A stretch of 64,000 bases of DNA. Source: Branchiostoma floridae (Eukaryota). The notes under the pieces were generated by a model, which was not told the origin of the DNA, searched no databases, and was given only the letters and a program-made list of their open reading frames with translations. Position 1 is the stretch's first letter, and each line of letters opens with the position of its first letter. The stretch spans positions 3,066,707 to 3,130,706 of the forward strand of contig NC_136205.1 of the NCBI RefSeq assembly GCF_015852565.1. Reading direction: 5' to 3'. Both the position numbers and the translations under genes were made by a program. Shown here in pieces: positions 21,438 through 52,452 of the stretch.

Positions 21438-21541
21438 GTCGGTACGCATATAATGATAAATCAAATCAACATGGTGAAGCTATGCAATTGCATTGTACCC
21501 AGCACACTGAGAGTTAACTGTTCAGGCTGCTTTGTCCTCAG

Positions 21542-21673
21542 ATGGGCGTGTTCCGTGGTTGCCAGGTAACCCTGGAGCTGACAGGTGTCACACTTCCATA
21601 TAAGGAGAAGAAGAGGCTGAGGGAACTCGTCACACAGAATGATGGCATCATCTCTTACATCATCAACAAAAAG
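21542..21673 (+). CDS. PARP4: PARP4 exon 1 (BRCT, N-terminal part)
   Basis: [44 protein letters not shown]. Compare human MGIFANCIFCLKVKYLPQQQKKKLQTDIKENGGKF. Acceptor cctcag directly before the ATG. Donor gtcaga. Confidence 0.85.
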
Positions 21674-22902
21674 GTCAGAGGGCAACTGTTCATTGTCCAG
21701 TCAAAAAGCAATGCTTGAGTTGTAACTTGTAACGTATAGAGTCCAGTTGATTCTGTGTATGGATGTAATGTTTTCAGTGTGCCTGGACTTTATGTTTGAA
21801 GTTATTACAACATGTAGAATATATTGAGTACACTGTCTTATAAGTGGCAGGAAGTGATTGAGAAAGTGGTGTCACTACAAAGGTCAGACCTCCAGGAGTG
21901 ACTGGAAATAGAGTCCAGAGGTGGTAGAACTTAGCTATTTATCAGACATGGTAGACATTCCAGGTCATGGGGTCAATGGAAGGGGCCACTAATTCATGGG
22001 GAGGTATTGTTTTCAGTGTTTTTTTTTTGCAGTTACGTATTTTCCATCTGCTAGGTTAGAGTCTGTTCATGCAATACCTAAGGAATTTGTGAGACAAAAA
22101 AAGTATCATTCCATGTTAGAAATAACCATTCTGTCTTTTCTGTTGACAAATTGATTTACACATTTTCTAGATTTCATTTCTGGTACTGGGGAACAAAGAA
22201 AGGACGGACAGCTACAAATGCAGGACGGCGGTGAAACTCGGCCTGCCCGTGGTGTCGCTCGACTACATCGAGGCCTGCGTACAGGCAGGGGAGCTGCTCC
22301 ATACCGACAGCTTCCTATTGGTCGGGAAGAGCGTTGCTGACGAGTTTTCTACGGGCAAAATCGCAGGTAATTAGGCGATTACACGTAACAGATAAAGAAC
22401 ACAGATGTTCTGCCGCACGATGTACGTAAGAATTTGGTGTTCAAATATTTTAATGGCATTTATTTTTATATGGATTGATGCCCTATATTGTTTTTAATGT
22501 AGTACAGTGGAGTTGTACATGTGATGTTCAGAACAATTCAGGATGTTTCCAACTGGACATCCTGCAAGTCTGTACAATTTGAATAAAACTCGTCAAGCTT
22601 GTCAGGTAACAGACTTCACCTCAACTGCTTCAAGTCATTATAGAGAATTGCTAAACTTTCATTCCAACACAAAGATAATGTAGGGACTTAAATTTTCGGT
22701 CGATTTCCGTCAAGTTACCTAATGTTCACAGAATGACCCTTTCTCACTCCAGCAGTGACGTCAGGAAGACACCACTTTTGTAGGTGGGGGTCATAAGTAT
22801 CAGAAAGTCTATGTCGCCCCCCGTCTCTGTTGAGTGTGGGCCGATGGGCTCTGATGTGCAAGGCCTCCTTCACTCCTCGTGCGAAGAAATCCTCAACAGA
22901 GA

Positions 22903-22939
<37 letters not shown>

Positions 22940-34900: not shown

Positions 34901-37900
34901 TTATCTTGTATTACGTAACACTTTGAAAATTGTTTGGCTGAAAGGCTGATATAAAATCAAACTATTATTAAATAAACTGTTTTCTTCCCCTCTGTAGGTT
35001 GTTGTGTTGCAGTCCTATAAGAATGAAAACAATGTTGCCATCGAGGCCAAGTACGTGTTCCCGCTAGATGACATGGCGGCTGTTGTCGGGTTTGAAGCAT
35101 TCATCAACGGGAAGCACGTGGTCGGAGAGGTGAAGGAAAAAGAGGAGGCACATCGCGAGTACCGACAGGCGATCAGCGAGGGACATGGTGCTTACCTCAT
35201 GGACGAAGAAACTCCTGTAAGATTCTTGATGACTTAAATTCAACAGTTATTTTTGCAGTATTAGTACTGTTAGTAGTATTTTGTGTAATAGCATTGTGGG
35301 TAAAACTGTTTGCTTTGTATTTGAGATTTTGTGTGTTCAAACCCCAGGTGAGTCATAATAGAGAATTTTGAAGAAATTATGTCATACAGTTTGATGCAAA
35401 AGAATGTGTACTGCCTTATACAGAGTTTTGGGTCACAACAAAATAGCAATATACAAGAGGGCCAAGTAAGTATCCTGGTGGAACCCCAACCCTAGACCAT
35501 ATATCTTTTGACAAGAAAAACTAAGTTTCCACTGGTCAGTCTGTGAATGTTTTACTACCTTCTTGTCACTGCGCCAACAAACAATGTTTCAGTGTCAAAG
35601 AGGTACATTCAATGACACATATCTTTTACATACAGTGACAATTGTTATGATTTGTGTTTTTCTAGGATGTGTTTACAGTGAGTGTAGGGAACCTGCCCCC
35701 CAGAGCCAGTGTACTGATCAAGATCACCTACGTCGCTGAGCTGGCAGTGGAGGGAGAAAACATCTGCTTCAGACTGCCTGGCAGCGTCGCTCCCTGGCAG
35801 GTGTGTTTGTCTAGAACTTTGTTACCATGGCAACAAGACGTTGTTATCTCCGTGTACGAATGATTCATTCTGTTTTTTTTATATTCTTGGTGTCCGTAGT
35901 TATTTGAATACACTGTCAGTAGATTTTGAGTGTCAGGAAGTGAGTGGGAAAATGGTGTCACAGTGTAAACTTGGGAGAGTGACAGTTCATGAAAGTATCA
36001 GACATGACAGGTCATCGGGTCAATGGAAGAGGCTACTAATTTCACGGGGAGACTATTTTTTTGTCTGTGTATTTGCAGTTATGCATTTTCCACATGCAAG
36101 TCACACTCACTATAGAGTAACAGGAAACAATCATTATTTAATGGACATATAATAAATGTAATAAGGACTTCGAACTCTTGTTTTGGATGTTGAGATAATA
36201 TGTACATTGTATAATGTTTGTTTGATCACAACTAAGATTATTCAAAGATTTTTTAAGCTTAGATTTTCCACCAACAGAAAGATTCACTCTCTGAGAAGAT
36301 CCAAAAGGACCTGGAAACTGTCAAGGTGGAAAAGGATGCTGGGAAAGAATTCTCCCTCCAGGTCGCCATGGAGATGCCCTTTGACATCAGGACCATCCAA
36401 TCACCATCTCACAAAATCAGAGTGAAGGTAGAAATTACTTCCATGACCTGTTTTGACTCAGCCAAGGCACTCTGTTTCTTTGTCACTAACCATTCTGTTA
36501 TAATTACAAAATGTACTTTGAAAATGCTGATGAGCTTTTGCAAACAAAACAATAAAAACAGTCTTGAAAACAATTATCCAATCAGAGGACTAGATTTTTT
36601 TTAGAATGTTCCTAAATAATGTATTGCATGCTCAGAAATGATTAATGTCATCTCTGACTACTGAGGGCATAATTTTTGTCCTGTAATTTTCTTTGATTTT
36701 TCTTGCTATCCTCTTATATTTTATGAATATACTATTAGATGATAAAGCAGTGGTTTGATAATAGATATTACTTCATTCCTCAGTTATGAATTTAGATGAA
36801 ATGGTTATCTGTGTGTAGGGTCAGAGAACGACTCGGCATAATTATAAGTTTCTCTTTATCCCCACCAATCAGAGGACAGCAAGCAAGGCTGTAGTGGAGC
36901 TGGAGAAGAACTGCATGCTGGGAGCTGGTTTCCTGCTGCAGGTTGGGCTGGCTGAGATCCACGTACCCAGGATGTGGGCGGAGCGGCACCCTGACAAGGA
37001 CAGCCAGGTTTGTTGGTTTGTTTGAACTTTAGCATGAAAGCTCATCTGTGTTGGTATAATCGATACTGAAGGTTTTTAATTGTCATTCAACACAAGAAAT
37101 TGCTCTCCTCGAATTTTCGGTAGCACATCCGTCAACCTTTGACAGGAGTGGTGGTTCAATTACTCTAAACATGTGATGTAGGAACACGAATGAAGAATCG
37201 TAGATGCTTGGCAAGCGGTATCGGCCCCCGTCTCTGTTAAGTGTCGGCTAGTGTGATCTTATGTGTATGGCCTCCTTTACCCCCCTCGCGAAGTAATCCG
37301 GTTCAGTATCCAATATTTGTGCTTTGTTTTAACTTTGTTTCTTCATAAAAGCTCAAATTGTCCTGCAGGCTGCTTTTCATTGAGGTCATGAGGGAAGAGA
37401 CAAGGGTCAGACTAAGTGTATAACAGAGATACAATACAGTTAATGATGATATGCATTCTTTGATTAATATCATCATATAGCAGGATATCAGTTGATGATA
37501 CTCTTTCCTCTTTTTATTTGAGGGACTGAAAAAGTCACAAAGTTGTGTTTAAGGGTTGAACTATGCCATCTCTTTTTTTAAACCCTCTTCATTATACACA
37601 GGACTGTGAGGGTCAACAAGTTATACTAAGTCTTATGTGGGGGTGAAGTCTGCTATCTCTAATGATTTTACTTAAAAAAAATCTGTTCATACACAGGCCT
37701 GTATGCTGACCTTCTACCCAGAATTCCAAGCAGAGGTTATGCAGGGTCATGAGGTCATCCTCCTCTTGGACGGGTCCAACTCCATGCGGGGGTCAGCTCT
37801 GGAGGCAGCCAAGAAAGTCGCCCTGCTCTGTCTGTGCCATCTACCAAAGGAATGTAGCTTTAACGTTGTTGCTTTTGGCACAGGTGTGTTCTTAATCATT

Positions 37901-40900
37901 TTCATTTTGAAAACAGATTTGCAATGGAATATGATTCTATTTAACTTTCTTTGGTGCTGATTGGCTATCACACGATGCGGTCTCATTTCAAATGATTCTA
38001 TTTACCTTTCCTTGGTGCTGATTGGCAATCACATGAGGCATTCTCATTTGAAATAATTTTATTTACCTTTCATTGGTGCTGTTTTGCAGATTTGTAACGG
38101 AATACAAAATAGTCTGAAGCTTCTGTACGTTGGTGCAGTCGCTGTAGAAGAGCAATTTGAAAGAGTGCTCAACAAATTTCATCGATGAAATATCAAACGT
38201 TTGATAGGATATAGCCCTTATTCATGTCCTTGTTAGGTATTGTGATGTAACTAGTTTTTCTTTATAAACTTTACAAATTCCATTTTGTAGGATATGAGGA
38301 ACTGTTTGCTGTGAGCCAGTCCAGAACCAAGTCCAATGTCTCTAAGGCTGAAACCTTTATCCAGGTATAGTCTTCATCTCATTGTTATTGAGCATTATAA
38401 CTTATCCCATGTAACTGTCTTTCAAGGTTTATTAGGCAAGAAAACAGTATACTGTTCCTTTTTGTTTGCCATTCTAATGAAATCTTGTTTCATCTGTCCT
38501 TGGTGCTGATTGGCTGTTGCATAGGTAGTCTTCTCCTATGTAATGATTATAAACTTATCTTACCTTGGTGCTTATTGGCTGTGACATAAAGAAGTCCTCT
38601 TTCAAATGATTCTATTTCATCTTTCCTTGGTGCTGATTGGCTATCACATAAGGTGGTCTCATTTCAAATGATTCTATTTCATCTTAAGTTGGGTTCTGAT
38701 TGGCTGTGACATTAAGCAGTCTCCTTTCAAATGATTATATTCTATCTCTCCTTGGTGCTGATTGGCTATTACATGAGCAGTCTCATTTCAAATAATTTTG
38801 TTTTATTTAGTTAATGCTGATGGCTTGGAATTTAGGCAGTCTTCTTTCAGATGGTTCTATTTTATTTCTCCTTGGTGCTGATTGGCTATCACATGAAACA
38901 ATCTCATTTCAAATGATTCTATTTCATCCTACGTTGGTGCCAATTGACTATCACATGAGGCGGTCTCATTTCAAATGATTATATTTCATCTTACATTTTA
39001 CTGATTGGCTGGAACTTGAGGCAGTTTCTTTCGAGTGATTTTATCTAGCTTTCCTTGGTTCTGATTTGCTATCATCTCATGCAATGTTATTAAAACTAGT
39101 CTATTTTATCTCTCCTTGGTGCTGATATGCTATCACGTTGTGTAGTCTTTTATCTAAGTACTAGTTTTATCCCACCATTTATACTGAATGTCTCTTGGAT
39201 AATCCCATTTGATATCTGATTTCTCTTCCCTTACTAAATATCAAAACACAGCAAACCATACACTTTTTGTAGGTGATTTTCAGTAGTGATACATTTGACA
39301 AGAAAGCCATAGAAAGAAAAATGTTCTTACCAATTTCTGCAATTATTTTATCAGAATGTCAAAGCATCCAAGGGAAACACAGATGCATGGAGACCCCTGC
39401 GTGGGTTCTTCCTGCTTCCGCCGTTGGGTAAAACACGGAACGTGTTCCTCATCTCTGACGGACATGTGAACAACCCTGACCAGACTCTGAGCGACATCCA
39501 CCAACATTACCAGGAGACTAGGGTCTTCAGCTGTGGTGTGGGGTAAGGACAAATCTCACAAGATTTTGTGTACTATTCCTTGAACCTTGAACCTTGACCA
39601 TTCAAGATTCAAGATATAACAAATTGATCCTGACTGTCCGTAATAATTAGCAACCAATGACACTACTGGGAGACAAGGGTCTTCAGCTGTGGGGTGGGGT
39701 AAGAATGCATCTCACAAGATTTTGTGTACTGAACTTGATTCTACTGGAAGATACATTTGTAAGTCAATGTGTAACAACAGACAGATCCTGGCTGTCCATC
39801 ACAATTAGCAGTTTAACCAATGATGGTATGGTAATTAGTGTTTAGATTGGCTGCAGTCTCGCAGACATTTGCATTTTTCTGTTTTATATCCTATCTTCTG
39901 CTGGAGGTGGATGGGGCTATATGAGATTGGTCTACTGGTTAAGATTTGGAGACTTACTTCATGACTTTTTAGTTACTTTTGTCACTCTTTTTCAACAATA
40001 ATAATATGTAAGATGGAAATAGAACAATTGAACATCACAAAGTCTGTAGAACTCATATGAAAATGATTAGTTACAGAGATTGCCTTCCAACATAGCAACC
40101 TTCCATTTTTTTTTCATGTAGAATGTAGCAACAACACAATAATTCTTGATGCTTGTTTTTAGGTCAACTTCCAACAAACATTTGCTGCGAGCCTTGGCCA
40201 GGGTGGGAGGGGGCGCCTTTGAGTATTTTGATGATAAAACCAAATCCAAGTGGGAAAAGAAGGTAAAGTCTATCATTTTATATCATGAACATGTAATATG
40301 TTTCATCGTTTCCCATAAAGTTTGCATTGCATGTATATCTTAATCTATATTGTCATTTATCAATAATTACTTTTAATACTCAATTTCATATACTTTATTA
40401 GGCTTTTATGCATTTTGTTATTTATGTATGAATATCAAAACACATAATTCATTACATACTCTCAGGCATACTTTCATACACATGTGCACACATAATTTTT
40501 ATACAAACACACAAACATACACATAGGCACAGAGACACAAACACACACACACACACACACACATACACACACCACTAAGGTCATCTAAGGTCAGGACACA
40601 CATACCTATATGGTATCAAGTTACATATACTAGGGCAGTATGCAACGGAAAGGTATATAAGTGCGAACTTTGTGTCAGCCTCAAACCTCAGAAGATATTG
40701 AATGTGCACAGCAAAACTGGTTTGGCTGACCAGCTAAAAGTTACACACTGAAACTTGTAGCTCCAGATGTCTTACTGAGGGATGACTGCAGTGCAAAATA
40801 TGTTGGTAGCTTAAAGAATGAGTCCACTCAACTTTATACATAATACACACAACACACATAGGTACACAGACACAAACACACACACATACACACACACACA

Positions 40901-43900
40901 CACACATGCACACACATGCATGTACAATCATGTGTACACTGAGAAGATATTAAAGCAAAGCTTAAACCTCAAGTTTACTGTGTTTGATATAGTGACTAAT
41001 ATACATGTAGATGTATCTAAAACCCTGTCAAATTCCTAGGTGAAAGCCCAGCTGTGGAAAGCTGCCCAGCCCGGCCTGACGTCCATGTCAGTTGATTGGC
41101 AGCAGTGGGATGATGATGCCCCGCCTCCTGTCCAGGCCCCCAATCAGATCGTCTCTCTCTTCAACGGTTTCCGTCAAGTGGTGTATGGCTACGTCCCACA
41201 CTGCACTCAGGTCAAAACATTCCAATATACATGTAGTACCTGTCAACTTGTAAACCTGAGTCTGTAAACTTGTAAAATGCAAAACTTTGTACTAATTTGT
41301 ACCAGGTCTCAATGTTGTGCTCTTTGGAATTTAGGCACAATATCCACACTCATCAGAATGAATACCACAGTATCCATTTTTATTAGAATGAATACCTAAC
41401 TGTTGTTAGTGTCACTAAAATGAGTGATGCTGAAGAAGAGTGATGGATGTCACTTGAAATGTCCGTTTTTTTATCCAGTTGTTGGGATTGAATTGTATTT
41501 GAATATTGTTTACCTGGGTGTCCAACCTTCATAAAGGACTTCTCAAACTAATCTGAAACATGGCTAATCATTCTAAAATGAAAAAGTTTGTAATTGAAAT
41601 TACTGTAAATGTATTTAAGTTCGCGGCGATTTAATTTTGCGGGAGTGGGAAATGGACTTTTCACCGTGGTTTTAATTTTGCAGTAACACCATAGACTACA
41701 GTCTAATACCATAAAGAAAAATGTTCGCGGTGGTTTTAAGTTTGCGGTGAGGTGGTCTCCGCGAAAACAGCTAGCATTAATCCACCACGAACATTTCTGC
41801 ATTTACAGTATTGTTTTTATTTATTCCAGGCCACCCTGAAGGCTGTCATCAACAACCGGGAAATCAGCACCATGGTCTCCACCACTGAACTCAGCATCAC
41901 CACAGGCAAGGTGGGACAGGTTTTTGGCTACACCTCTGGGGTGGAGGCCATATTTCTTTTTAATAGCTGGGATTATTTCCTGTAACCAGGCATTTTAATT
42001 TGTTTGTTGATTGTTTATTTAAGGATTGAGACCTATACTAAACATACATGAGCAAAAGAGAAATAAAGCAACAGCTGCAGTAACAACACAGAATAAGAAC
42101 ATTCATACAACATTTTGGCAACTGTCTGTCACCTTCCTCAGAGCAATTCTGAGGGCCACTACACATTTTAGCTAAGGTGTCGCTGCTAGCAATGCACGTT
42201 AGGAACTATGACAGCCATTTATGCGTTCCCAAATATAACATTATACATATAACATATATTGATCACAATGATTGTTGTCATATATAAAATTACAGATGCC
42301 GACAGTCAGTAGATCCTGGTTGTGAATAAAAAAAATGTTACATTATAATAGTGATTTTCCAACCTGACTAAATGATTCAAAGGACTAACCACACAGTTTT
42401 GTCCCAGATCCTGCACCAGCTGACGGCCCGTGCTGTCATCAGAGACTGGGAGGACGGGACCCTGCATGCAGACAGGATGCACCATGAGGTCAGCGTGTTC
42501 TAAATCCTGACATTGAGAATCAGTGTGGTATTCCTCATGTCATGTGTGGCTGTGCTGGGTGGTTGTCTTTGTAGTACCGTAGCACAGTTTTCGTTGCTCA
42601 TTTGTACATTCTGCGGTCATGATCTTCTAATGGTTGATAGGTCTTTGGCTCATGAAAAAGTGGTATAATTTTGGGCCCTCTGGCAGCTTTTTTTAAACTG
42701 TAGGAGGCGATGTTTGAAAAAAAGAGTAAGGCAGGTAGGGGTTGACGGATTGTCACAATTTTTGCTATGTAGATGGCTTAAGAGATAATTGACATACTTA
42801 GTTGGCTTGTGTAAAGGGGTATAGTTTGGGGCTCTTTGGCAGCTTTTTTTGTAACTGCAGGAGCAGGATCTTCATGAATTTTGGTTAAAAAAAAACTTTG
42901 TAGATGGCTTTAGAGATAATTGACATGCTTATCTTTCTCTCTTTTTTTCCAGACAAAGAAAATGGGTCTGAAGCCGTACATTATCGACCTTAGTAAGGAG
43001 TACTCCATCGTCACACAGTTCACCAGCTTTGTAGCTGTGGAGAAGCGGGAAAAGGTGAGAAAAATTTTGGTGACACCAAGGGAACAGAACTTGTACTTGT
43101 AACAGTTACTGTAAGTGTGGAAATAACTCATAAGCCAGAGCGAAAAAAAAAAAAATCCATGAAAACAAAAATTCTGCCAAACCACAGGACTAAACATCCA
43201 GACCATTTTTTCCCAGGCTTGGTTTGTCTTATGGTCCACATCCAGTAAACCTGTAAGATACAATCATCGCCATTTCAATAAATATTTATTCATTTATTGC
43301 TATTCTTGTTCAAAGAGGGGAACGCCCCATGCCCTGACCATTTGCCCCCTTACCCTGAGGAGCGGATCCTCTGACAGTTATAAAATTCTGATTAACCAGG
43401 GGTAGTTTAAGGACAAACGTGGGCATAGTTTGTTTGTTTTTTGAGAAAAGGGGAAAAGCAACACACTCACGGATGTTATTCATAGAATGAAGTCAGTGTG
43501 GCCTATGACATAATGATTGTTTGATGCAGGATGAAGATCTGACTACCGGTGAGGGTCCAAGCATCACAGAACTGGTGGAAAAAGAGAGTGTGGACATCCT
43601 ATCCTACATGGGATGGGAGAGGGACAAAGGGGAAGAGGAGGCAGAGGAAGTGTATAAGGTATGAGCCAAATTAAAGTGGAATTTTGGCTTGCTTTAAAAT
43701 GAAAGATTTTTGTGAAGAAAATCAAGTACGTGTGCCTTAAATTTTTTGACTGGACATCGCATAGTTTCTTGTATTCAATTTCTAGAATAAAGTGCTTGAT
43801 GGACAGATCACAGAAAAGGCCATTGAACACAGCTTGGAGTTCTACACCACTGCAGTGGAGACTGCAAAAAGGGAGCTTCCCCCAACCCATCCAACAGTGT

Positions 43901-46900
43901 TGCAGTCACAGCTCTCTTTGGCAATGTTTTATCACAACAAATTGAATATGCAGGACAAGGCCTGCCTGGTTGCAAAGGCTGCCTTTGACGATGCGATCGC
44001 GGAGTTGGATACTCTGAGCAAGGAAAGCTACAAGGACTCGACCTTGGTGATGCAGCAGTTGAGAGACAACTTGACATTGTGGTCTGCTGAGGACGGGGAA
44101 GAAGAGAAAAAAGCCAACGAAAAGAAAAAGGTCCTTATTCCTAGTGTCAACCATAGCTCACTTTGGCTAATCAACCTTCTCGGATGAAGCCCATCTTACA
44201 TACCCAACCATGGCCTCGCGACCTTCTCCAGACCATGGTTGGGAGTTAAGCCCCTGTCACACATAGCCGACCATGCCCTCCCAACCTTCTTCAGACCATG
44301 GTCAGGAGTTAAGCCCTTGTCTTACATACCTGACCATGGCCTCCCAACCTTCTCCAGACCATGGTCAGGAGTTAAGCCCTTGTCTTACATACCTGACCAT
44401 GGCCTCCCAACCTTCTCCAGACCATGGTCAGGAGTTAAGCCCTTGTCTTACATACCTGACCATGGCCTCCCAACCTTCTCCAGACCATGGTTGGGAGTTA
44501 AGCCCGTCTTACATACCCAACCATGGCCTCGCGACCTTCTCCAGACCATGGTTGGGAGTGAGACCATCAGTAATTTGGACCAGACCAAACTTGGCAAAGT
44601 CATATTCTTCTAAGGTGCAAGCAGATTGGTAAAATGGAATATGGTTGGTAGCAAGTCATTGAAAGGTCCTGAATTTGTGACAGGGGATGTGACTAGTACA
44701 TAATTTTGCATGGAAACGGGAATAGACCGACTGAGTGTGCTTGTTAAAACTAAGAGTAGATTATCTTCAAGACCAGAATCTTCAAATTACCAATTGAATT
44801 TATCATAACTTTTCTATATTTGATGTTGTCAACAGGTCATAGAGGAAGTTTATTATGAAGAGGTTTTAATGGGAGGTAAGATACCAATTAATCTTTAATT
44901 TACATTTAGTTTAACCTTGTATTAAGTTGGAATTTATTGAATGGTTGATCATGAGATTTCAACACCAAGGACTCTATTGAAATGCACATCTTGATTTTGT
45001 TTTGGTATTTTTATTTTCCAACTTCTAGACTTGGATGATTTTGACATGGAGGACCCTGAGTATCTAGAAATGGGAGGTGCTGGTGTTTCCTCCAGCACAG
45101 AGGAGACAGAATCTGATGACTCGTGGGGATCAGATTCAGATCTAGATGAAGAGAGTGAATGTGAGGAAGGTAAGAAACTAGTTGGAAATCTTTAACGATG
45201 TATCTGCCCATCATTGCCAATCATCATCATCATATCTTGTCGCTCCATCTCCTTATCCAGCTGCGGGCTGCCTCATTGGCCTCTCTTAAGCTAAGGGCAC
45301 AACCTGCCGTACATACAATTTGTCTGTATGTTTTTTTAGGCCACGTTCCCCACATATGTCTGGAAACGCTTCGTCCGTACTGGCACATAGGGGGGCAAAT
45401 CCGCAGCCCGAGGGCACACAAAGTTTTGCCTGCACGTAAAGTTCTACAGCGTGTCTGCGTGCTCCGTCGGATTCTCTACGAGTTTGTATGGAGGCGGTAC
45501 TTACCACTTACGGATCCCAAAAGATTGCCCACGTATTTGCATGTACAGCGGGCTGTGCCCTTAGCTTTAGGTCACTGTCCGAGCAGGTTGGGCCAAGTTC
45601 ACAGTTTTGTAACAGATGTTGTATTGTTTGCAGCTCTGCTCAGTATGGGCAGGCTGCACTTGCAGATTTGTCCAATTTCATTTCCAATAACGTTTTCCCT
45701 AGAGTTTTGTTTATTTGATGTTTTTGGTTTTGATGTTGCTTAGACTGGAGATGGTTCGCTAGACCTAGTGGTTGACCAGTCAGGTTTGACTCACTGTGGA
45801 CTGCATATTTACTTTTGAATTATTCTATTGTAAATGCCCATATGGTTGTTTTATGTTCACAGTTTCACTGTTGCCGCTTTACCACATACTCAAACCACTA
45901 GGAACATTTCTCCATGACAGTAAATTGTTGCTACAGTATATGGTGCTATTGCATGTGAACTCAAAAAGTCCATTTTCCTGCTTCTGCAAAATCAGATCCC
46001 TGCAAACTTAATTGCATGTACTGTATCTTGTTCACAGGAGGTAAGGAAACAGTAAGAAAGAAAGATTCATCATCACCAGAGGAGGAAGAGAGTGAAGAAG
46101 AGATGGGGTTTGGATTGTTTGATGATGGTGAAGGTAGGATGGCAGGTGAGATGGTAGAGTACTGTAAATCTTGAGATGCATGGTTTTCATGGTGACATCT
46201 CCACCATGATACAATCGCCATACAAACAGCCCGGCTGGGCCCTGGGTTATAGAAATGTGACTTAGTCCTTACTGTTACCTAGTTTAATAAAAGAGACAAC
46301 GAAAAAGAACTGCAGTCAAAAATCATACTTTTGACACTTTTTGTTGGGCTCCGTTTTTCAAAGACACTAACTCTTGAATCTTTCTATTTCTTCAACAGCT
46401 GCTGATGAAAAAGAGGGTTCTCCTCTTGCTGATACTTATCAGATGAAGGCTAATGCCTTGCAATTGGAAAAAGGTCGATTTGCATCTCCCATGAGGTCTA
46501 GATCAAGGTCAAGGTCAGATAAACATTCCTCTCCAGCATACAGCCCGACATCTCCAGCATATAGCCCAGCATCTCCAGCATATAGCCCGACTTCACCTAC
46601 TGAGGAAGCCACAGAGGCTGAGTACACAAAGCCTAAACCTCTAGCTCGGAAAATGGCACCAAAACGGGTCGAAAAGGAGAAGGCACCAAGCCCACACTTC
46701 TCAAAGATGTCTGCAACGTTCTTGACCCGAGAATCTGAAAGGGGAAAGTCCTCATACAGAGTGTCAGATGAAGTTCAGGCTCGTGTAGATCGCCTTGATG
46801 ATCTAGTAGAAAAAGCTGATGCTCTTAGTGCACAAGCTGCAATATTTGGTGCTTCAACAACCATTTCTAAAGATGATGGCCTCTTTGCCGGTTCAACAGA

Positions 46901-49900
46901 GGCAAGTGTGCAGAAACCTAAACCTTTTGAATCCAAGCCAGGTATCGTTCAACCTGCCAGATTTACTTATGAAGCAACACCAGATACTACCAAGGGTCTT
47001 TTTGGCAGAAAGGCTGAACCAGAGACTGCAGGGTTTGCTCTTGCCCAGTCTGTGGCCGCAGAAGAGCCAGCTCCTGCTTTTGGTTTTGGAGCTCCAGTTG
47101 CAAGCTTTGGTGCAGAAACTTATGGAACTCGTGGTGTAGACTTGGATGCACCCATACCGTATGGCAAAATCCCAGTTGGTGGAACGCCGTTTGGTGAAAC
47201 GCCAGTTAGTGGAAAGCCGTTTGGTGAATCTGCTGTAAAGTTTGGAGGTCCTCCTGGCACTGTAGCTGGCACAAAGACGCAAGAGACTGCATTTGGTCAG
47301 GGTTTTGGTTATGCTTCAAGTCGTGGTGTAGGCTTTGGTAAAGCAACATTTGGTGAAGCAACATATGGCACACCATTTGGTGGAACACCATTTGCTGCAA
47401 CCACAGGTCTTTTTGCCCACTCAACTGCACCAAAGGATCAGGAAGCTGTGTCATTTGGTTTTGCTCCCTCTACTGACCAGAGCACAAGGGGTGGTGGAGG
47501 ATCCGCAGGTGGTTTTAGCTTTGGTTGGACTGCATCATCAGATTTGGGACAGAGGGATCGAGACAGGAGCTCCCCCCTAATTGGTGACACAAAAAAAGGA
47601 TTCAAGTTTGGAGCCTCACTTGAAGAGAAAGAAGAAACAGCAAGCTTTAGCTTTGGTGGATCCAGCCAGAAAGTGGTTCCTCAAGCAGGTTTTGGAGCTG
47701 ATCAACAGATGCAGCAGCAACAACAGCAACAACAACAACAGGCTCAGATGAATGTCTCTGATACTGCTCCTCAGAGGAAGATGCGAAGCAGGCTTCATGG
47801 CGCTATAGCTACCTTAAGTGAATCCAGTCAAGCAGAAATGGTTCCTGAAGCAGGTTTTATCTCCAATCAACGGATGCAGCAGCAACAGGCTCAGATGGAT
47901 GTTCTTCTTACTGCTCCTCCGAGGACAGGTGGTGGAAGGGTTCATGGCGCTTTAACTAGATTAGACGAATCCAGTCAAGCAAAAGTGGTTCCTCAAGCAC
48001 GTGTTGGCTCTCGAGCTCCTCAAAAAGCGAGGAAGACAACTGGCGGCAAGGCTGTTAGAGTTTCTTCAGGATTCAAGGACAGCTTGGACATCGTAGACAA
48101 GAGTTCACGCGACACTGGTGACTCTTGGAGAGCTGTCAAACGGACCGAGACCCCCATGGCTGGTTATTTTGACATGAGGGCCATGTCCCCTGCCTCAACA
48201 AATTCTGCACAGTCAGTTGCTTTTCAACAGCTGTCAGCATCTGCTGCCTTTCTACAGGCACCCCCTCCTGCGCCACCCCCTTGTTCAACAGGCCCCCCTC
48301 CTCTTCCACCCCGCTGCCCAGCAGGACCCCCTCCTCCAGCTGGTGCCCCTCCCCCACCACCACCACCCCCTAAGGGCATTCAGCTTCTTAAACCAAGAGC
48401 AAGTTTAAAGTCCAAAGCAGTAATGGCAGCACCCATGCGTGCACTATCCATGCCCTCGAAAGAATATGCCCCATTGCCCCCTCCTCCTCCAAGTTCAGTC
48501 GAACAGGCACCAGAGCTACCAGCATGGGATAGAGAAGAAGAACTGCAAATGGGGATTGTTGAAGAAAGCCGTGCAATTGCTTCGTATGAACAGATGGAAG
48601 AGTTAAAACCATTGTCAAGAAGTTTGGAATTGAGACAAAAGAAGAAAAAGAAACAGTTCGAAATCCAGGCAAGGTTGGAGGAAGAAAAGGTATCATTGGA
48701 CAAAGTCATGTACATGGATGAAAGCGTTCAAGAAGGAGAGGAAATGTACAGGTAAGAGTGAAGTCAACAAAGTACAGTCTCTACCTAATTAGATGAATGT
48801 GAAATTTTCCACAAATCGGGGGAATATTTTATCTGAGAGCTTGCAATTGCCTGGTTAATGTAGTACAGGCTTGTCCGCTGAAGATTGTAACTTGTAACTG
48901 TAGCCCTTTGGCCAATTTCTACTGATTTTTCACATAAACCACAGTCTCATAGGGACTAAATGAAATGTTTGATTTATGTAATTGTGGCAAACATGTTGCC
49001 TACCTGAGCTTTTCAAAGGAAAAATGTAAAGTTTCAATAAAGTTAACGTAAATTACTTTCAAGGACCAATTTAGGGACTATTCTTGACAATTGAACTACA
49101 TGTAAATCCAAGGTTACACAAAGCTTACCATAAAAGTGTACAACTTGTGATAACAGTCATTATTTTCCACATAAAGCAGTGTTCAAGTTTGTGGGCACGG
49201 GTCAATGGTATGCAAATGTATTGTGTCGTCTTAACTTTATTCTTTAAAGTAGGGGTTCTTTGCATTGAGCAATTTCATGATATTCATACAATGCCACATC
49301 GTTGTAAACACCACAGAAGACAGTATCTCTTTTGTTTAGTATTTTTGTTTGATGTCAGCCTGTTGTTACATGATTGTGTATAATTATGCCTTTGTCATCT
49401 TGTTCATGACTTTTGTAACATGTATTACAAACTTTATTTCAGGACCAGTTTGAGGGGGTTTTACGGTCCAAGAAGAGGTCCCGGTGCATATCACTCTGCC
49501 AGCTTTCATCTAACCTCAGGTAGGTTAATCAATTCATGTGCAAAGTAAGGCTAATATCAGTAGTCTAAGACTAGATGGAGAGCTTTTTTATATAGTCATC
49601 CAAAGATCTAAACTTCATTGAAATATCATGATAGGACCGTTGATCATTGAAATAGCATTGAAAGATGTTGTAGGTCACTAAAATATCATTAGTAAGACCA
49701 TACTTCAAATGGGGGCATGGGTTCGTATCCCACTTCTGACACCATATTGGCTTAGAGATTATCTCAGTCGTAGACTTAAAATGCTCAACATTTCTTGTCC
49801 CAAAGAACTAATTGCCAAGGTACAATGGACCTGTAAATACTGTACACAGTGTCCATCTTACCTGTCATGACCAGTGCAGATGTTAGTAATGACTGACTAA

Positions 49901-52452
49901 GAAAAAAGAAATTGCACAAATGTCTAATCTGAAAAATGATGCTCACAAGTAATCATGTTTTTTTTCAACCCTCTGCAGGTTCCTTTAGTGGAAGAGAAAT
50001 TGATGTAGTACCTGTCGTGACCACAAGGGGGAGGGTCATCACAGAGACAACTGTTGACCAAATCTTTGCACTGCTAAAGGTATCATTTGTAATTATTGGT
50101 TCAAATATAAAGTATAGTAGCTCTAGTTTTAGAGTGATGAATTACTGTAACATTAACACTGAATTTATTCTTTTTTGAGTGGGAGATTAGAATTGGTCTT
50201 GCACCCATCCATAATTTGACTGTTTTTTTGACAGTTTACTGCGTACTCGGATGCCAAAATGTTCTTTTATTCTTTATTGCAGGCGCTAATAGGCCCATAG
50301 TAAAAGCCTACTGTATAAGACACACAACATAACATAGATATTAAAACAACAATGCCACTCTATGTGTACAAGCGCCTCCTGATGTTTTTGAAATATTATT
50401 GTGTTATGGTAGAAAGAATCCAACTAGATGGAATGGGAAGAGTGGAAAAGCGGAATATACAAAAGAACGTTTGCGTCATGATAGAGTAATATTAGCATAG
50501 ATAATACCATAGTTTACTCATATAGCTAAAACCCAAGGATAAAACAATCAAATTTAATTATATTGCCCCCCTCCCCAGCACACTGACCAGGGGCTCTCCT
50601 ACTGGGAGTTCAGTCCAGAGTTAGACGAGTTGCTTGGGATTTCCAGTCAGCAGTGCATCCAGATATTTAACACTGCAGGACTCAAATCTCTGGGTAAGAT
50701 CTCATTCATGATCATGGTCATAAGGATATGTGTCCATACATGTAGTCAGGTCAGATGACAACTGTTTCCCTCCTGTCAACAGTCTTTCAGCCTGCAAAAA
50801 GAATCTTCACATCTATTTCCTTGCATGATACTAAGTAATTTTCGCAAACCCATCAACTTAGTTCATTGCCTAGAAGTGGTCAAATGGTCTTGCTTTGATC
50901 AAGCCATATTGCATTAACAAAAGGTAAAGAAATGAAATAAGGAATGAATGAAGACCTTTATTCTACATTTTTGCCCAACTGAACTAAGCACAGGTCACAA
51001 GAAAGACAAAACACACAATGTTATGCAAAAGTACAATATTATTTGTATCATAGATCTAATCTAGTGAAGAAGTTTGGCTTCTTCTCCCTTCCTGGTAATG
51101 GTAAAAATGTAGGCTTGTATGTTGTTAGGTTTGTCAAAATGCAACTCATATCTATTAAGTGAATCTACTTCCTATTTCTATCATTAACATAGTGCATAGT
51201 CCAATCAACAACGAAGTGAACTTCATCTTCATTTATCTTCATCTCCAGGTGTGAATGTTGCCAGGCAGATACTGCAGCTGGTGGCCACCTTTGAACAAGC
51301 TCGTACAAAAAACATTGAAAAATACCTTTAAGTTAGCACTGAGTGGGACATAATTTTTTATTTTTATTTTGATCTCCAGGTGCGAATGTTGCCAGGCAGC
51401 TGCTGCAGCTGGTGGCCACCTTGCTGGTTGTGCAGCTGCTGATGCTGCACCTGCCGCAGCTGTTCCCCAGCTGCAGGAGCCTGCTGCACCTGGATGTGGC
51501 GCAGGTGCCGGCCAAGTGGTGCAGTGCATTGCAGCAGGTGCTCACATGGGCCAAGGTAGGATTTTGTACTACAAAACTACCAAAACTAGACTGAGTTTGT
51601 ACTACAAAAACTTAATTTGTATACACTTGTTGCAAGAAGAGGAAAGAGACATGTAAATGATAGATGTAATAATAGTGGCGCAGGCGTCAGCCACTTGGTG
51701 CAGCACACTGCAACAGGTGCTCACATCGGCCAAGGTAGGAGTTACCTACTGATAATATGAGGGGCAATCAATAAGTTTACACAGAAAAAAGGTGCACAAC
51801 TCAAATTTTGGAGCATTATAAACTATATGAATGTGCACCAAAATTCAATGGGCCAAGGTAGGAGTTGGCTACTTAGTATGAGGGGTGATCAATAAATTCT
51901 TGGACTCATGAATAAAGGTGCTTAACTCAGATTTTGGATCTGATGTAAAGTATAAAGTATTATATGAATTTGTACCATAATTCAAATCATTGTGATCATT
52001 ATTGTACAGGCAACACCCAGTAATGGTAGGTAAGAGAGAAGAAAAAACATGGACAATTGAGCTGCAAGCTGAGGTGTGCATGTCAACTTGTTCTGCTAAA
52101 TGTCGGATACTAATAAAAGAATTAGGCACTGAAGAGGACGAATTTGAAAGAGAAATCAAGAAGCTTAAGATCACACCAATGTTCACTCATCAGGTATAAG
52201 CTTTGTTGTACTGTTGACCAATCGCTTACGTGACATGAATTATGAGGAAGACTGCAGTTGAAATTTCTATGTACTATTTTCTTGTGGTGGAACAAAATTT
52301 TAATTCTGTTATCATATAAATCTATTCGTTTATTAATTTTTCTATTTTCACAGAGTGTTGACACGATGCACCCATCAGTGTACTCCCGTTTGGAGCTTGG
52401 GAAGAGTTGGGAGGACCTGACCACAAAGCTGATCGGTGTCAGCAATGCATAG
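21542..52452 (+). CDS. PARP4: Gene model (39 coding exons): vault poly(ADP-ribose) polymerase (PARP4/VPARP) homologue. Domains: BRCT, PARP regulatory and catalytic, VIT, vWA, long disordered mosaic linker, C-terminal vault-interaction region.
   Basis: Colinear by-eye similarity to human PARP4 across all globular parts. Examples: [119 protein letters not shown]. All exon phases are consistent. ATG at 21542, TAG at 52450-52452. Confidence 0.9.
22171..22366 (+). CDS. PARP4: PARP4 exon 2 (BRCT, C-terminal part)
   Basis: [65 protein letters not shown]. ttctag/gtaatt. Confidence 0.85.
22636..23133. mobile_element. Foldback element with about 230-bp arms and a central G36 homopolymer (PARP4 intron 2)
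   Basis: Left arm cattatagagaattgctaaactttcattccaacac... The right arm is its reverse complement, ending at 23133. G-run at 22904-22939. Confidence 0.8.
23247..23545 (+). mobile_element. 5'-truncated copy of the SINE-like element seen at 11360-11900
   Basis: gggcatgttcgggcatga...ggaagtcctcctag...gcatctgctgg..cacacgttgcatacagttg is colinear with 11567-11815. Confidence 0.7.
23715..23775 (+). CDS. PARP4: PARP4 exon 3
   Basis: (A)[19 protein letters not shown]. ttccag/gtaagg. Phase 1 to 2. Confidence 0.7.
23978..24101 (+). CDS. PARP4: PARP4 exon 4
   Basis: [41 protein letters not shown]. Compare human QDFEVAKYNTLEK. cttaag/gtgagt. Confidence 0.75.
24484..24615 (+). CDS. PARP4: PARP4 exon 5
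   Basis: [44 protein letters not shown]. taacag/gtgaga. Confidence 0.75.
24762..25111. mobile_element. MITE with cagggctcgaaat termini (intron 5)
   Basis: 13-bp perfect TIR. The interior holds many gggtgcac repeats. Confidence 0.65.
25290..25454 (+). CDS. PARP4: PARP4 exon 6
   Basis: [55 protein letters not shown]. taccag/gtaagt. Confidence 0.75.
25835..26005 (+). mobile_element. Interspersed repeat family B copy (intron 6)
   Basis: Colinear with 8363-8535. Confidence 0.7.
26092..26229 (+). CDS. PARP4: PARP4 exon 7
   Basis: [46 protein letters not shown]. Compare human VSDLVEMIWAEALGHLEHML. ctgtag/gttcgt. Confidence 0.8.
26893..27069 (+). CDS. PARP4: PARP4 exon 8 (PARP regulatory/helical domain)
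   Basis: [59 protein letters not shown]. Compare human AEGILLLVKAALKNGETAEQLQKMMTEFYRLIPHK...KKADLCQ. Confidence 0.85.
27073..27426. mobile_element. hAT-type MITE (family D), copy 2, inserted 3 nt into intron 8
   Basis: 16-bp perfect TIR cagggctctagccagc / gctggctagagccctg. 8-bp TSD gtcaggta at 27065-27072 and 27427-27434. Confidence 0.85.
28013..28176 (+). CDS. PARP4: PARP4 exon 9 (regulatory to catalytic junction)
   Basis: [54 protein letters not shown]. Compare human LIRDMVNVCETNLSKPNPPSLAKYRALRCKIEHV. Confidence 0.85.
28199..28382. repeat. (GAGT)n microsatellite, intron 9
   Basis: gagtgagtgagt... for about 180 bp. Confidence 0.95.
28694..28885. mobile_element. Foldback MITE, intron 9
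   Basis: ccccctcacattag...gagtctgcgagctctaaattacgaggaggcatgaccctga, with its reverse complement forming the second arm. Confidence 0.7.
29065..29173 (+). CDS. PARP4: PARP4 exon 10 (catalytic; His of the H-Y-E triad)
   Basis: [36 protein letters not shown]. Compare human VLQIFRVGRVNETTEFLSKLGNVRPLLHGSPVQ. Confidence 0.85.
29363..29391 (+). CDS. PARP4: PARP4 exon 11 (29-nt microexon)
   Basis: AQNFVGILS. Compare human NIVGILC. tttacag/gtaggc. Needed for frame continuity. Confidence 0.75.
29827..29922 (+). CDS. PARP4: PARP4 exon 12 (catalytic; Tyr of H-Y-E)
   Basis: [32 protein letters not shown]. Compare human [31 protein letters not shown]. Confidence 0.9.
30280..30605 (+). repeat. Two extra tandem copies (152-bp period) of the acceptor and 5' half of PARP4 exon 13 (pseudo-exons)
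   Basis: Copies start at 30302 and 30454; the real exon starts at 30606. Both extra copies diverge after GATGTGTA into TCAACACGGCATCGATTCCTAA, which gives an in-frame stop. Confidence 0.85.
30606..30789 (+). CDS. PARP4: PARP4 exon 13 (catalytic)
   Basis: [62 protein letters not shown]. Compare human LSTSIKYSHPGETDGTRLLLICDVALGKCMDLHEKDFSLTEAPPGYDSVHGV. Confidence 0.9.
31017..32610 (+). mobile_element. 5'-truncated non-LTR (LINE) retrotransposon: reverse-transcriptase C-terminal part plus 3'UTR, in PARP4 intron 13, same orientation as the gene
   Basis: ORF 31113..32291, open upstream to 31017. RT motifs: [44 protein letters not shown] (YxDD). (CAAA)n tail at about 32595-32610. Confidence 0.85.
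32794..32837 (+). CDS. PARP4: PARP4 exon 14 (catalytic Glu of H-Y-E)
   Basis: [14 protein letters not shown]. Compare human DDEFVVYKTNQVKM. ttacag/gtatgt. Confidence 0.85.
33018..33185. mobile_element. MITE family C, intact copy (intron 14)
   Basis: Termini acagtagaagcca ... tggcttctactgt. Colinear with the split copy at 18330-18488 and 19697-19712. Confidence 0.75.
33803..33921 (+). CDS. PARP4: PARP4 exon 15
   Basis: [40 protein letters not shown]. Compare human KYIIKFSMPGDQIKDF. Confidence 0.85.
34405..34541 (+). CDS. PARP4: PARP4 exon 16 (VIT domain start)
   Basis: [46 protein letters not shown]. Compare human AGLQDASGNLVPLEDVHIKGRIIDTVAQ. Confidence 0.85.
34998..35216 (+). CDS. PARP4: PARP4 exon 17 (VIT)
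   Basis: [73 protein letters not shown]. Near-identical blocks to human PARP4. Confidence 0.95.
35666..35800 (+). CDS. PARP4: PARP4 exon 18 (VIT)
   Basis: [45 protein letters not shown]. Compare human [26 protein letters not shown]...ATVAPWQ. Confidence 0.95.
36278..36427 (+). CDS. PARP4: PARP4 exon 19
   Basis: [50 protein letters not shown]. Compare human QSFSLTMSIEMPYVIEFIFSDTHELKQK. Confidence 0.85.
36873..37007 (+). CDS. PARP4: PARP4 exon 20
   Basis: [45 protein letters not shown]. Compare human RTDCKAVISTMEGSSLDSSGFSLHIGLSAAYLPRMWVEKHPEKESE. Confidence 0.9.
37697..37883 (+). CDS. PARP4: PARP4 exon 21 (vWA domain with MIDAS DxSxS)
   Basis: [62 protein letters not shown]. Compare human ACMLVFQPDL...VIICLDCSSSMEG...VNIIQFGT. 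Confidence 0.9.
37925..38090. repeat. About 60-bp minisatellite with a ggtgctgattggct core (CCAAT-box-containing), intron 21 block
   Basis: Three units. Same family as 38480-39175. Confidence 0.8.
38291..38364 (+). CDS. PARP4: PARP4 exon 22 (vWA)
   Basis: [25 protein letters not shown]. Compare human GYKELFSYPKHITSNTMAAEFIMS. Confidence 0.85.
38480..39175. repeat. About 60-65-bp minisatellite (about 11 units) with a ccttggtgctgattggct core, intron 22
   Basis: Repeated tcatttcaaatgattctatttcatct(t/c)tccttggtgctgattggctatcacat units. At least ten intact ATTGG (reverse CCAAT) across both blocks. Confidence 0.85.
39355..39542 (+). CDS. PARP4: PARP4 exon 23 (vWA)
   Basis: [63 protein letters not shown]. 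Compare human MGNTDFWKTLRYLSLLYPARGSRNILLVSDGHLQDE...RLFACGIG. Confidence 0.9.
40163..40262 (+). CDS. PARP4: PARP4 exon 24 (vWA end)
   Basis: [33 protein letters not shown]. Compare human STANRHVLRILSQCGAGVFEYFNAKSKHSWRKQ. Confidence 0.9.
40505..40572. repeat. (CA)n microsatellite, intron 24
   Basis: acacacacac run. Confidence 0.9.
40843..40922. repeat. (CA)n microsatellite, intron 24
   Basis: cacacacaca run. Confidence 0.9.
41040..41210 (+). CDS. PARP4: PARP4 exon 25
   Basis: [57 protein letters not shown]. Compare human SVSVKWQQLNPDVPEALQAPAQVPSLFLNDRLLVYGFIPHCTQ. Confidence 0.9.
41405..41535 (-). mobile_element. Interspersed repeat family B copy, reverse orientation (intron 25)
   Basis: The reverse complement matches gacacccaggtaa...caactgga...cggacatttcaag of the 8363-8535 type. 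Confidence 0.55.
41601..41810. mobile_element. MITE family A, full copy, 20 bp upstream of the PARP4 exon 26 acceptor
   Basis: tactgtaaatgtatttaagttcgcgg ... cacgaacatttctgcatttacagta. Confidence 0.8.
41830..41910 (+). CDS. PARP4: PARP4 exon 26
   Basis: [27 protein letters not shown]. Compare human [27 protein letters not shown]. Confidence 0.9.
42408..42488 (+). CDS. PARP4: PARP4 exon 27
   Basis: [27 protein letters not shown]. Compare human MIHKLAARALIRDYEDGILHENETSHE. Confidence 0.9.
42953..43054 (+). CDS. PARP4: PARP4 exon 28
   Basis: [34 protein letters not shown]. Compare human [34 protein letters not shown]. Confidence 0.9.
43530..43658 (+). CDS. PARP4: PARP4 exon 29
   Basis: [43 protein letters not shown]. 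Compare human VSELIAKEDVDFLPYMSWQGEPQE. 129 nt, phase 0-0. Confidence 0.85.
43786..44130 (+). CDS. PARP4: PARP4 exon 30 (candidate cassette): in-frame exon encoding the C-terminal half of a 14-3-3 protein
   Basis: [115 protein letters not shown]. Compare 14-3-3 zeta [71 protein letters not shown]. tttctag/gtcctt. 345 nt, phase 0-0. Confidence 0.65.
44185..44575. repeat. 63-bp minisatellite (about 6 units) immediately 3' of the 14-3-3-like exon
   Basis: Unit gttaagcccttgtcttacatacctgaccatggcctcccaaccttctccagaccatggtcaggag. Unit starts at 44308, 44371 and 44434. Confidence 0.9.
44836..44875 (+). CDS. PARP4: PARP4 exon 31 (40 nt; acidic, Tyr-rich)
   Basis: [13 protein letters not shown]. caacag/gtaaga. 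Shifts the phase from 0 to 1, as required to enter exon 34. Confidence 0.6.
45029..45169 (+). CDS. PARP4: PARP4 exon 32 (acidic linker)
   Basis: [47 protein letters not shown]. ttctag/gtaaga. Phase 1-1. Confidence 0.6.
46038..46133 (+). CDS. PARP4: PARP4 exon 33 (acidic linker with a ribosomal P-stalk-tail-like motif)
   Basis: [32 protein letters not shown]. ttcacag/gtagga. Phase 1-1. Confidence 0.6.
46399..48751 (+). CDS. PARP4: PARP4 exon 34: 2.35-kb exon encoding a low-complexity/disordered region (RS run, CTD-like heptads, FG repeats, polyQ, H3-tail-like peptide, polyPro)
   Basis: Part of track ORF 46374..48755. Acceptor ttcaacag at 46391-46398, donor ACAG|gtaaga at 48751/48752. Phase 1 in and phase 2 out, matching the neighbouring exons. 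Confidence 0.8.
49443..49519 (+). CDS. PARP4: PARP4 exon 35
   Basis: (R)[25 protein letters not shown]. tttcag/gtaggt. Phase 2 to 1. Confidence 0.65.
49979..50079 (+). CDS. PARP4: PARP4 exon 36
   Basis: [34 protein letters not shown]. ctgcag/gtatca. Phase 1 to 0. Confidence 0.7.
50579..50693 (+). CDS. PARP4: PARP4 exon 37 (C-terminal vault-interaction region)
   Basis: [38 protein letters not shown]. Compare human QTEDGFWKLTPELGLILNLNTNGLHSFLKQKGIQSLG. Confidence 0.85.
51380..51555 (+). CDS. PARP4: PARP4 exon 38 (C-terminal region)
   Basis: [59 protein letters not shown]. Compare human VKGRECLLDLIATMLVLQFIR...ISRNIPWAFEAIKQASEWVRR. Confidence 0.8.
52354..52452 (+). CDS. PARP4: PARP4 exon 39 (terminal, with stop)
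   Basis: [32 protein letters not shown]. Compare human QYPSICPRLELGNDWDSATKQLLGLQ. ttttcacag acceptor, phase 0. Confidence 0.85.
   Translation, partial: SVDTMHPSVYSRLELGKSWEDLTTKLIGVSNA

Follow-up and report, generated by a model that had tools for sequence, protein, structure and literature searches.

Histone H3 look-alikes and the PARP4 linker exon

Short look-alikes of the histone H3 tail have been described in both cellular and viral proteins. The G9a/GLP automethylation site, ATF7IP/mAM, LIG1 and SETDB1 carry ARK[S/T] mimics, that is, internal H3K9-like motifs in non-histone proteins (PMC2175347; PMC6172828; preprints on SETDB1). Influenza A NS1 (ARSK tail) and SARS-CoV-2 ORF8 (ARKS) carry short H3-tail look-alikes in disordered regions and reportedly hijack H3-directed proteins by means of them (PMC6028506; bioRxiv 10.1101/2021.11.10.468057). 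Here we describe an H3-like peptide in a large exon of the amphioxus gene PARP4, which encodes a vault ADP-ribosyltransferase. The exon lies within a stretch of 64,000 nucleotides of Branchiostoma floridae (GCF_015852565.1, an assembly of Branchiostoma floridae x B. japonicum; contig NC_136205.1, positions 3,066,707 to 3,130,706 of the forward strand), which we call the window and number from its first letter. Based on comparison with two further Branchiostoma species, the peptide is probably a functional conserved motif; its possible action through proteins that recognize the H3 tail is proposed more tentatively below.

The PARP4 motif resembles the cellular mimics in being an internal H3K9-like motif in a non-histone protein, and the G9a automethylation site has the same form, ARKT, as the motif in the window (PMC2175347). 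The cellular mimics share four to six residues with H3, whereas the PARP4 motif has ten identities over 13 positions and extends along T11-G12-G13-K14-A15 as far as R17; their hosts are chromatin enzymes, whereas the host here is a vault ADP-ribosyltransferase. The alanine of the PARP4 motif is not invariant (PRKS in B. lanceolatum), and methylation, observed for the G9a site, is hypothetical for the PARP4 motif. Like the viral mimics, the PARP4 motif is a short H3-tail look-alike in a disordered region; however, the viral mimics belong to pathogen proteins that act on host chromatin, whereas PARP4 is a host protein with a longer match that has persisted over tens of millions of years. A literature search combining PARP4 with “histone mimic” gave no relevant paper. 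Histone mimicry is an established concept, and the PARP4 case would be a new example of it, unusual in its length (R2-R17), its host protein and its exon, the one already noted as the fast-evolving interface of PARP4.

In vertebrates, the largest PARP4 exon has been described as disordered, with great variation in its sequence and length and with positive selection acting in primates and bats (PMC4038475; PMC10450202). The homologous human region has also been described as disordered and as likely to contain short linear motifs (PMC10450202), and this fast-evolving exon, which has been proposed as a host-virus interface, is without known ligands (PMC4038475; PMC10450202). The vertebrate exon (human exon 30) and the amphioxus exon are alike in that each is a single, very large, disordered and variable exon located between an ITIH-like region and the vault-binding (MVP-interaction) domain. 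They differ in that positive selection, and no histone-like motif, has been reported for the vertebrate exon; seven vertebrate linker fragments score ≤23 against H3, compared with 46-49 for the amphioxus sequences. To our knowledge, PARP4 and the vault particle have no agreed function.

An H3-like peptide in the large PARP4 exon

The exon and the elements of the peptide are as follows.

46399..48751, + strand: large PARP4 coding exon encoding a disordered linker, counterpart of the human “largest exon” (exon 30); recognized from the open frame, splice signals and protein models P0001 (NCBI, window) and P0002 (B. belcheri).
48021..48059, + strand: H3(5-17)-like 13-mer, read from the translation; 10/13 residues equal H3 5-17, and 9/13 are invariant across three amphioxus lineages.
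48012..48059, + strand: extended motif R-x-x-Q-x-x-R-K-[ST]-T-G-G-K-A-x-R, corresponding to H3 R2-R17; from three-species protein and codon alignments.
48075..48077, + strand: lysine nine residues past the K14-equivalent, the spacing of H3 K23; from reading the sequence against the Kap123 consensus, which is a loose rule.

The open frame around the motif spans 794 codons (46371-48755, + strand). A splice acceptor (cag/C) at 46399 and a donor (AG/GTAAGA) at 48751/48752 delimit an exon of 2353 nt, which the NCBI model P0001 reproduces with 100% identity. AlphaFold2, applied to P0001 with an alignment of two sequences only, returned coil with pLDDT of 34-37 at residues 621-640 (the motif) and <50 at residues 594-706, and 60% of the local residues are disorder-promoting; the motif is predicted to lie in an accessible disordered segment, in agreement with the published account of the homologous human segment (PMC10450202).

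We used phmmer to search a 30-mer around the motif against all PDB chains, and histone H3 N-terminal tails were the sole family among the 60 best hits. Over 17 residues the window peptide aligns with the H3 sequences SRTMQTARKSTGGKAPR / ARTKQTARKSTGGKAPR, with a best E of 0.11 (15.8 bits). Within this alignment, the 13-mer and H3 5-17 share 10/13 identities with a BLOSUM62 score of 48, and both the H3 5-17 segment as given in the sequence-only reading of the window and its count of ten identities proved correct. One more identity lies upstream, where an arginine at 48012-48014, three residues ahead of the glutamine, corresponds to H3 R2. The likeness ends at R17, and no H3 18-135-like sequence follows it. 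On the reverse strand, the translation opposite 48021-48059 is unremarkable.

The sequence-only reading had suggested a comparison with shuffled sequence. When either the exon or the local 213 residues were shuffled, 0/2000 shuffles of each kind reached 10/13 identities or a score of 48 against H3 1-40; the top scores were 41 for the exon set and 42 for the local set. Across all six frames of the window, the second-best independent match to H3 1-40 scored 34. Karlin-Altschul arithmetic done by hand (ungapped BLOSUM62, lambda 0.318, K 0.134) gave an expectation of ~0.001 chance matches of such quality per exon, ~0.16 per six-frame window and ~20 per proteome. On these expectations, and because many other famous peptides could equally have been recognized, the H3 resemblance taken alone is weak, suggestive rather than decisive; the match stands above chance because the motif is kept in two further species.

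Conservation among three Branchiostoma lineages

We compared the window with locus L001 of B. belcheri and locus L002 of B. lanceolatum, a set of three congeneric lineages; the deepest Branchiostoma split, at the crown spanned by these lineages, is dated to ~87-130 million years (PMC6305399; PMC10013865). Both L001 and L002 have a collinear counterpart of the window exon, a long open frame that in B. lanceolatum forms a linker exon of 763 codons (L002 7991-10279), situated between two gene models and mostly unannotated. Any two of the species share 35-51% identity over the aligned columns of the exon, hundreds of columns contain gaps, and 158/785 columns of the window exon (20%) are invariant in the three species.

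The motif occurs at L001 25023-25061 in B. belcheri and, as QRPRKSTGGKAGR, at L002 9428-9466 in B. lanceolatum. Each of these 13-mers is identical to H3 at 10/13 positions, the two are unlike each other at 5/13 positions, and BLOSUM62 scores against H3 range over 46-49 in the three species. Loss of the peptide in sister species had been named in the sequence-only reading as evidence against a mimic; instead, both species keep it, and its nine invariant positions tie for the maximum in the exon, a level shared by 4/773 windows of 13 residues (0.5%). The 13-mer had been picked without sight of the orthologues, and its conservation is therefore an independent test.

Conservation within the motif follows identity to H3. 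Residues identical to H3 were kept in 19/20 comparisons and non-identical residues in 1/6 (Fisher p = 5e-4), all nine invariant positions of the 13-mer (9/9) are H3-identical (10/715 = 0.014, calculated by hand), and every fixed position of the extended motif equals the corresponding residue of H3 2-17. The block RK[ST]TGGKA is retained in all three lineages, and with it the TGGK element to which the earlier reading had drawn attention. Two other elements that it had singled out are retained in part: ARK(S/T) is present as ARKT in the window and B. belcheri and is replaced by PRKS in B. lanceolatum, so the tetrapeptide is not invariant, and threonine occupies the S10-equivalent position in the window and B. 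belcheri, with serine in B. lanceolatum.

Codons at A7, T11, G12 and K14 differ synonymously among the species, and constraint therefore acts at the protein level. The motif is collinear in all three, lying between a GGSSQAK..P block and downstream D-T..T-P residues, with flanks that are strongly diverged and contain many indels; other conserved islands in the linker are APAFGF and KRVEKE..AP. As judged from these alignments, the pattern, with 9-11 constrained positions inside a disordered linker, is characteristic of a short linear motif, and it is this conservation, not the H3 match by itself, that carries the main support for function.

Taxonomic range and origin

Among 120 VIT-vWA/PARP4 relatives from other phyla, which are mostly fragments and include seven vertebrate fragments containing the linker and the MVP-interaction domain (MVP-ID), the H3-like peptide was absent, with a best score of 23. 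When the translation of window 46623-48170, the non-repetitive part of the exon, was run with HMMER against the full set of 1.84 billion representative proteins, P0002 of B. belcheri was the sole hit. A query of all 794 amino acids matched P0001, P0002 and RPB1 proteins, the last through heptads resembling the C-terminal domain (CTD) of RNA polymerase II, and a query with the MVP-ID matched amphioxus fragments alone; an exact look-up of P0042, aimed at a second haplotype, gave no match. As far as can be seen from these searches, the motif is a lineage-specific feature of cephalochordates.

Two neighboring elements bear on its origin.

47655..48010, + strand: 147-bp tandem units, two full and one partial, with polyglutamine (polyQ), adjoining the motif upstream; lineage-specific.
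43786..44184, + strand: open frame with the C-terminal third of 14-3-3, inserted in the PARP4 linker; PF00244 positions 128-223 of 223, E 1.7e-30.

The 147-bp unit is present in no copy in B. lanceolatum and in one copy in B. belcheri, and the duplicated copies in the window are not H3-like. We considered the motif as a decayed third copy of the polyQ repeat and ruled this out, as the motif occurs without any such repeat in B. lanceolatum and behind just one unit in B. belcheri. From the same distribution it follows that the motif is ancestral and that the repeats expanded later. Capture of a fragment of a histone H3 gene, with the motif as its relic, would be an unlikely source. The capture of gene fragments has a precedent here, given the genuine 14-3-3 fragment in the same linker of all three species; however, the likeness to H3 halts at R17 with nothing resembling H3 18-135 after it, and 13-16 codons are too few for proof of descent.

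Proposed recognition by H3-tail partners

The peptide is probably a selectively maintained short linear motif in a disordered, fast-evolving linker, copying H3 R2-R17 at each constrained position. As a proposed histone-tail mimic, it would be bound or modified by proteins that normally recognize the H3 K9-K14 stretch, and PARP4 would thereby be tethered or regulated. Because every constrained position equals H3, H3-tail partners are the most economical candidates. What the analysis shows is the sequence, its coding context, the pattern of its conservation and its predicted disorder; we infer both further steps, the function from conservation and the route via proteins that recognize the H3 tail. 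Our preferred candidate is (i) a methyl-phospho switch of the basophilic-kinase / G9a-GLP type at RK[S/T], where chromodomain or 14-3-3 proteins would recognize the motif once it is methylated or phosphorylated; ranked second is (ii) a pocket of the importin-4/Kap123 type, which would hold G-K-A. That the motif acts through the H3-tail machinery in either way, as a methyl/phospho-regulated or an importin-type docking site, seems to us a serious possibility, although somewhat short of probable.

G9a has TARKSTG as its minimal site, in which R is essential and RK/ARK forms the core (PMC8541646; PMC10611923). G9a methylates as efficiently on ARKT motifs as on H3, and HP1 then binds the methylated motif (PMC2175347); both the chromodomain and G9a favor a small hydrophobic residue ahead of R (PMC8541646; PMC2175347). 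The amphioxus version of this site reads [K/S/R]-[A/P]-R-K-[T/S]-T-G, in which the S/T interchange at position 10 would be typical of a phospho-acceptor. The binding of phosphorylated H3S10 by 14-3-3 proteins involves S/T with Arg at -2 and Gly at +2 and requires phosphorylation; the sequence part of this rule, R-K-[ST]-T-G, is present in all three species.

In the Kap123/importin-4 complex, G13-K14-A15 occupies the first lysine pocket and a second lysine, at least seven residues on, occupies the other (PMC5677370). The consensus is XSH-K-XSH-(X)>=6-K, with small residues beside the first lysine (PMC5677370). All three amphioxus motifs agree with this rule of low specificity, sharing with the H3 import signal G-K-A and a downstream lysine, which lies at +9 from the K14-equivalent in the window and at +8 in B. 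belcheri and B. lanceolatum; they do not copy the H3 18-27 segment. The Kap123 rule also leaves the conservation of R2, Q5, R8, K9 and S/T10 unexplained. For GCN5/PCAF, the Tetrahymena GCN5-H3 structures gave G-K-X-P as the rule at H3K14. We rejected the motif as a GCN5/PCAF acetylation site, as the residue after K-A is V, L or G in the three species and never P. Overall, the suggestion made in the sequence-only reading that the peptide is a bait for H3-tail readers or writers fits the recognition rules that can be checked in the sequence.

Several points weigh against action through the H3-tail machinery. The H3 likeness was spotted post hoc, and by the hand estimate ~20 equally good matches are expected per proteome. 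The comparison spans just three congeneric lineages, and the motif is missing from the non-amphioxus PARP4 relatives retrieved, including the seven vertebrate linker fragments, and is thus no general feature of PARP4. Because the motif is internal, readers that need a free H3 N-terminus are excluded; Ala7, important for chromodomain binding, is Pro in B. lanceolatum, and the Pro16 of the GCN5 rule is absent in all three species. PARP4 is mainly a cytoplasmic vault protein, and most writers and readers of the H3 tail are nuclear.

If recognition by H3-tail partners is confirmed, the motif would be an unusually long cellular histone mimic (R2-R17), and it would link a vault ADP-ribosyltransferase to the chromatin-tail machinery or to histone import receptors.

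Alternative explanations

The peptide could instead be a conserved basic linear motif unrelated to the H3 machinery, such as a nuclear-localization or RNA-binding patch, a kinase site or a vault contact, with a coincidental likeness to H3; we regard this as possible but rather doubtful. Conservation proves constraint and not the identity of a ligand, the Karlin-Altschul estimate allows ~20 H3-tail matches of like quality per proteome by chance, the linker has further conserved islands (APAFGF and KRVEKE..AP), and PARP4 is largely cytoplasmic. However, the nine invariant positions, the S/T position and the upstream arginine all coincide with H3, and the non-H3 positions are the variable ones; a generic basic patch would not require an invariant T-G-G-K-A, and no classical K-K/R-x-K/R signal is conserved in the three species. 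It is very unlikely that the likeness arose by chance and has no function, with limited divergence in this region, or an artefact of the alignment, accounting for the similarity among species. The comparison took in only three related species, and MAFFT may anchor on chance identical words in low-complexity sequence; against this, the motif is collinear in the three species between diverged, indel-rich flanks, its core contains four synonymous differences, and just 0.5% of windows are equally conserved.

The sequence-only reading had also proposed an intramolecular pseudo-substrate or auto-modification site, in which the H3S10-like residue would accept ADP-ribose or, as threonine, block the PARP/HPF1 active site. 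H3S10 in the KS motif is the main site of PARP1/2-HPF1 on H3, and Ser10->Thr abolishes ADP-ribosylation in vitro (PMC6172693). This proposal, which we judge highly improbable, draws on the presence of the motif in a PARP and of KS in B. lanceolatum. In the window and B. belcheri, however, the dipeptide is KT, and H3 S10T peptides are not ADP-ribosylated in vitro by PARP1/2-HPF1 (PMC6172693); an S/T interchange is at odds with a conserved acceptor and equally with a conserved non-acceptor. No Asp or Glu occurs in the invariant core, whereas the reported PARP4 target site on PIDD1 is a Glu (PMC13127586), and a literature search found no reported link between PARP4 and HPF1. The threonine in two lineages and the lack of an acidic residue in the core thus speak against auto-modification, and a pseudo-substrate resting on a non-modifiable threonine is contradicted by the serine of B. 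lanceolatum. A conserved Ser-ADP-ribose acceptor was rejected as well, as Ser follows Lys only in B. lanceolatum.

Other look-alike islands in the linker

The linker contains further segments that resemble parts of other host proteins, among them the heptads noted above.

46527..46601, + strand: RNA polymerase II CTD-like heptads; TRF period 21 x3, PDB phmmer E 1.2e-5 to RPB1.

B. lanceolatum has the YSPTSP[SA] heptad three times in perfect form, the B. belcheri model has it once, and P0124, a PARP4 fragment of the teleost Lates calcarifer, contains the sequence SPQYSPTSPSYS at the corresponding position. Given its presence in teleost PARP4, the CTD look-alike seems older than the H3 look-alike. 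Together, the H3-like motif and the fish-shared heptads suggest a linker built of recognizable docking motifs and not a mere spacer.

The B. belcheri and B. lanceolatum models of PARP4 include the 14-3-3 fragment too; the fish linkers seen do not have it. As the fragment is without the phosphate-holding helices, it is probably not a working phosphopeptide binder. It is a curious neighbor for a motif that resembles the 14-3-3 ligand H3S10ph.

Within the exon (46399-48751, + strand), 18 FG dipeptides were observed compared with 3.3 expected from shuffles, and the corresponding counts in the other two species are 13 vs 2.1 and 16 vs 2.6. This five- to six-fold enrichment would amount to nucleoporin-like FG repeats in a vault protein.

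Minor observations in the linker include a predicted helix at ~46770-46840 (+ strand; P0001 residues 207-232), which has a sub-threshold match to Pfam Synaptobrevin (R-SNARE) with E 0.097 in the window and E 0.0038 in B. belcheri, and a polyproline tract at 48250-48356 (+ strand), which consists of 33-bp and 18-bp repeats and is formin FH1-like. At the place of the polyproline tract, B. lanceolatum has six copies of an 11-residue unit, and a mammal-like PARP4 fragment (P0110) has a Pfam FH1 annotation. The same exon contains an RS run.

The H3 look-alike might be one bead on a string of host-protein look-alikes, comprising the CTD heptads, RS run, 14-3-3 fragment, FG dipeptides, synaptobrevin-like helix and polyproline tract, that serve as decoys or as a karyopherin tether; we think this improbable. 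As decoys, they would form an integrated array baiting pathogen factors aimed at host tails, which would fit the virus-driven positive selection reported for the mammalian exon. As a tether, they would provide multivalent karyopherin binding, combining H3-type and RS-type import signals with FG repeats. An old proposal that vaults work at nuclear pores is related to the tether option.

PARP4 gene structure and neighboring sequences

The placement of the peptide inside PARP4 agrees with the domains encoded around it, as the + strand encodes BRCT, PARP catalytic, VIT and vWA domains (the last two forming the ITIH-like region) ahead of the linker exon, with PARP4_MVP-ID exons after it.

21518..40340, + strand: upstream PARP4 exons (open-frame fragments); Pfam BRCT_2, PARP, VIT and VWA_3 above curated cut-offs.
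~21518-22371, + strand: BRCT; BRCT_2 28.2 bits, cut-off 27.3.
~29741-30801, + strand: PARP catalytic domain; Pfam PARP 73.3 bits.
~34365-35860, + strand: VIT; Pfam VIT E 1.7e-39.
~37676-40340, + strand: vWA; VWA_3 E 6.1e-22.
49384..52449, + strand: downstream PARP4 exons encoding the C-terminal MVP-interaction domain; match to P0042, P0041 and P0002 (precomputed PF26156 PARP4_MVP-ID).

The input to the Pfam scan consisted of hand-joined open-frame fragments. The downstream exons are the same as P0042 and similar to P0041 and P0002; PF26156 PARP4_MVP-ID had no hit in the local Pfam scan, and its assignment comes from precomputed annotation and source names. The closest relatives in other phyla bear the name PARP4. 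NCBI breaks the locus into separate models, P0001 (“uncharacterized protein LOC144867646”) and P0042 (“PARP4-like”), over window 44995-52449 (+ strand), whereas the B. belcheri model P0002 (parp4) unites the end of vWA, the 14-3-3 fragment, an acidic stretch, the motif linker and the MVP-ID in a single protein. The order of elements is collinear with the teleost PARP4 fragment P0124. We infer that the linker exon belongs to one PARP4 transcript.

Within the gene, positions 30266-30721 (+ strand) contain three tandem 152-nt copies of a PARP catalytic-domain exon and its flank (the later copies are 94% and 86% identical to the first), which represent an exon triplication or an assembly artefact. 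An intron within the PARP catalytic region contains an open frame of 424 codons (31017-32288, + strand) that by eye resembles a reverse transcriptase of the long interspersed nuclear element (LINE) type. The last PARP4 coding exon (52360-52449, + strand) has a second copy with an acceptor site ~6.3 kb downstream (~58640-58735, + strand).

On the opposite strand, a gene with many EGF-like repeats lies upstream of PARP4 (1500-10200, - strand), and two long open frames lie downstream, one of 411 codons (60021-61253, - strand) and one of 315 codons (62808-63752, - strand).

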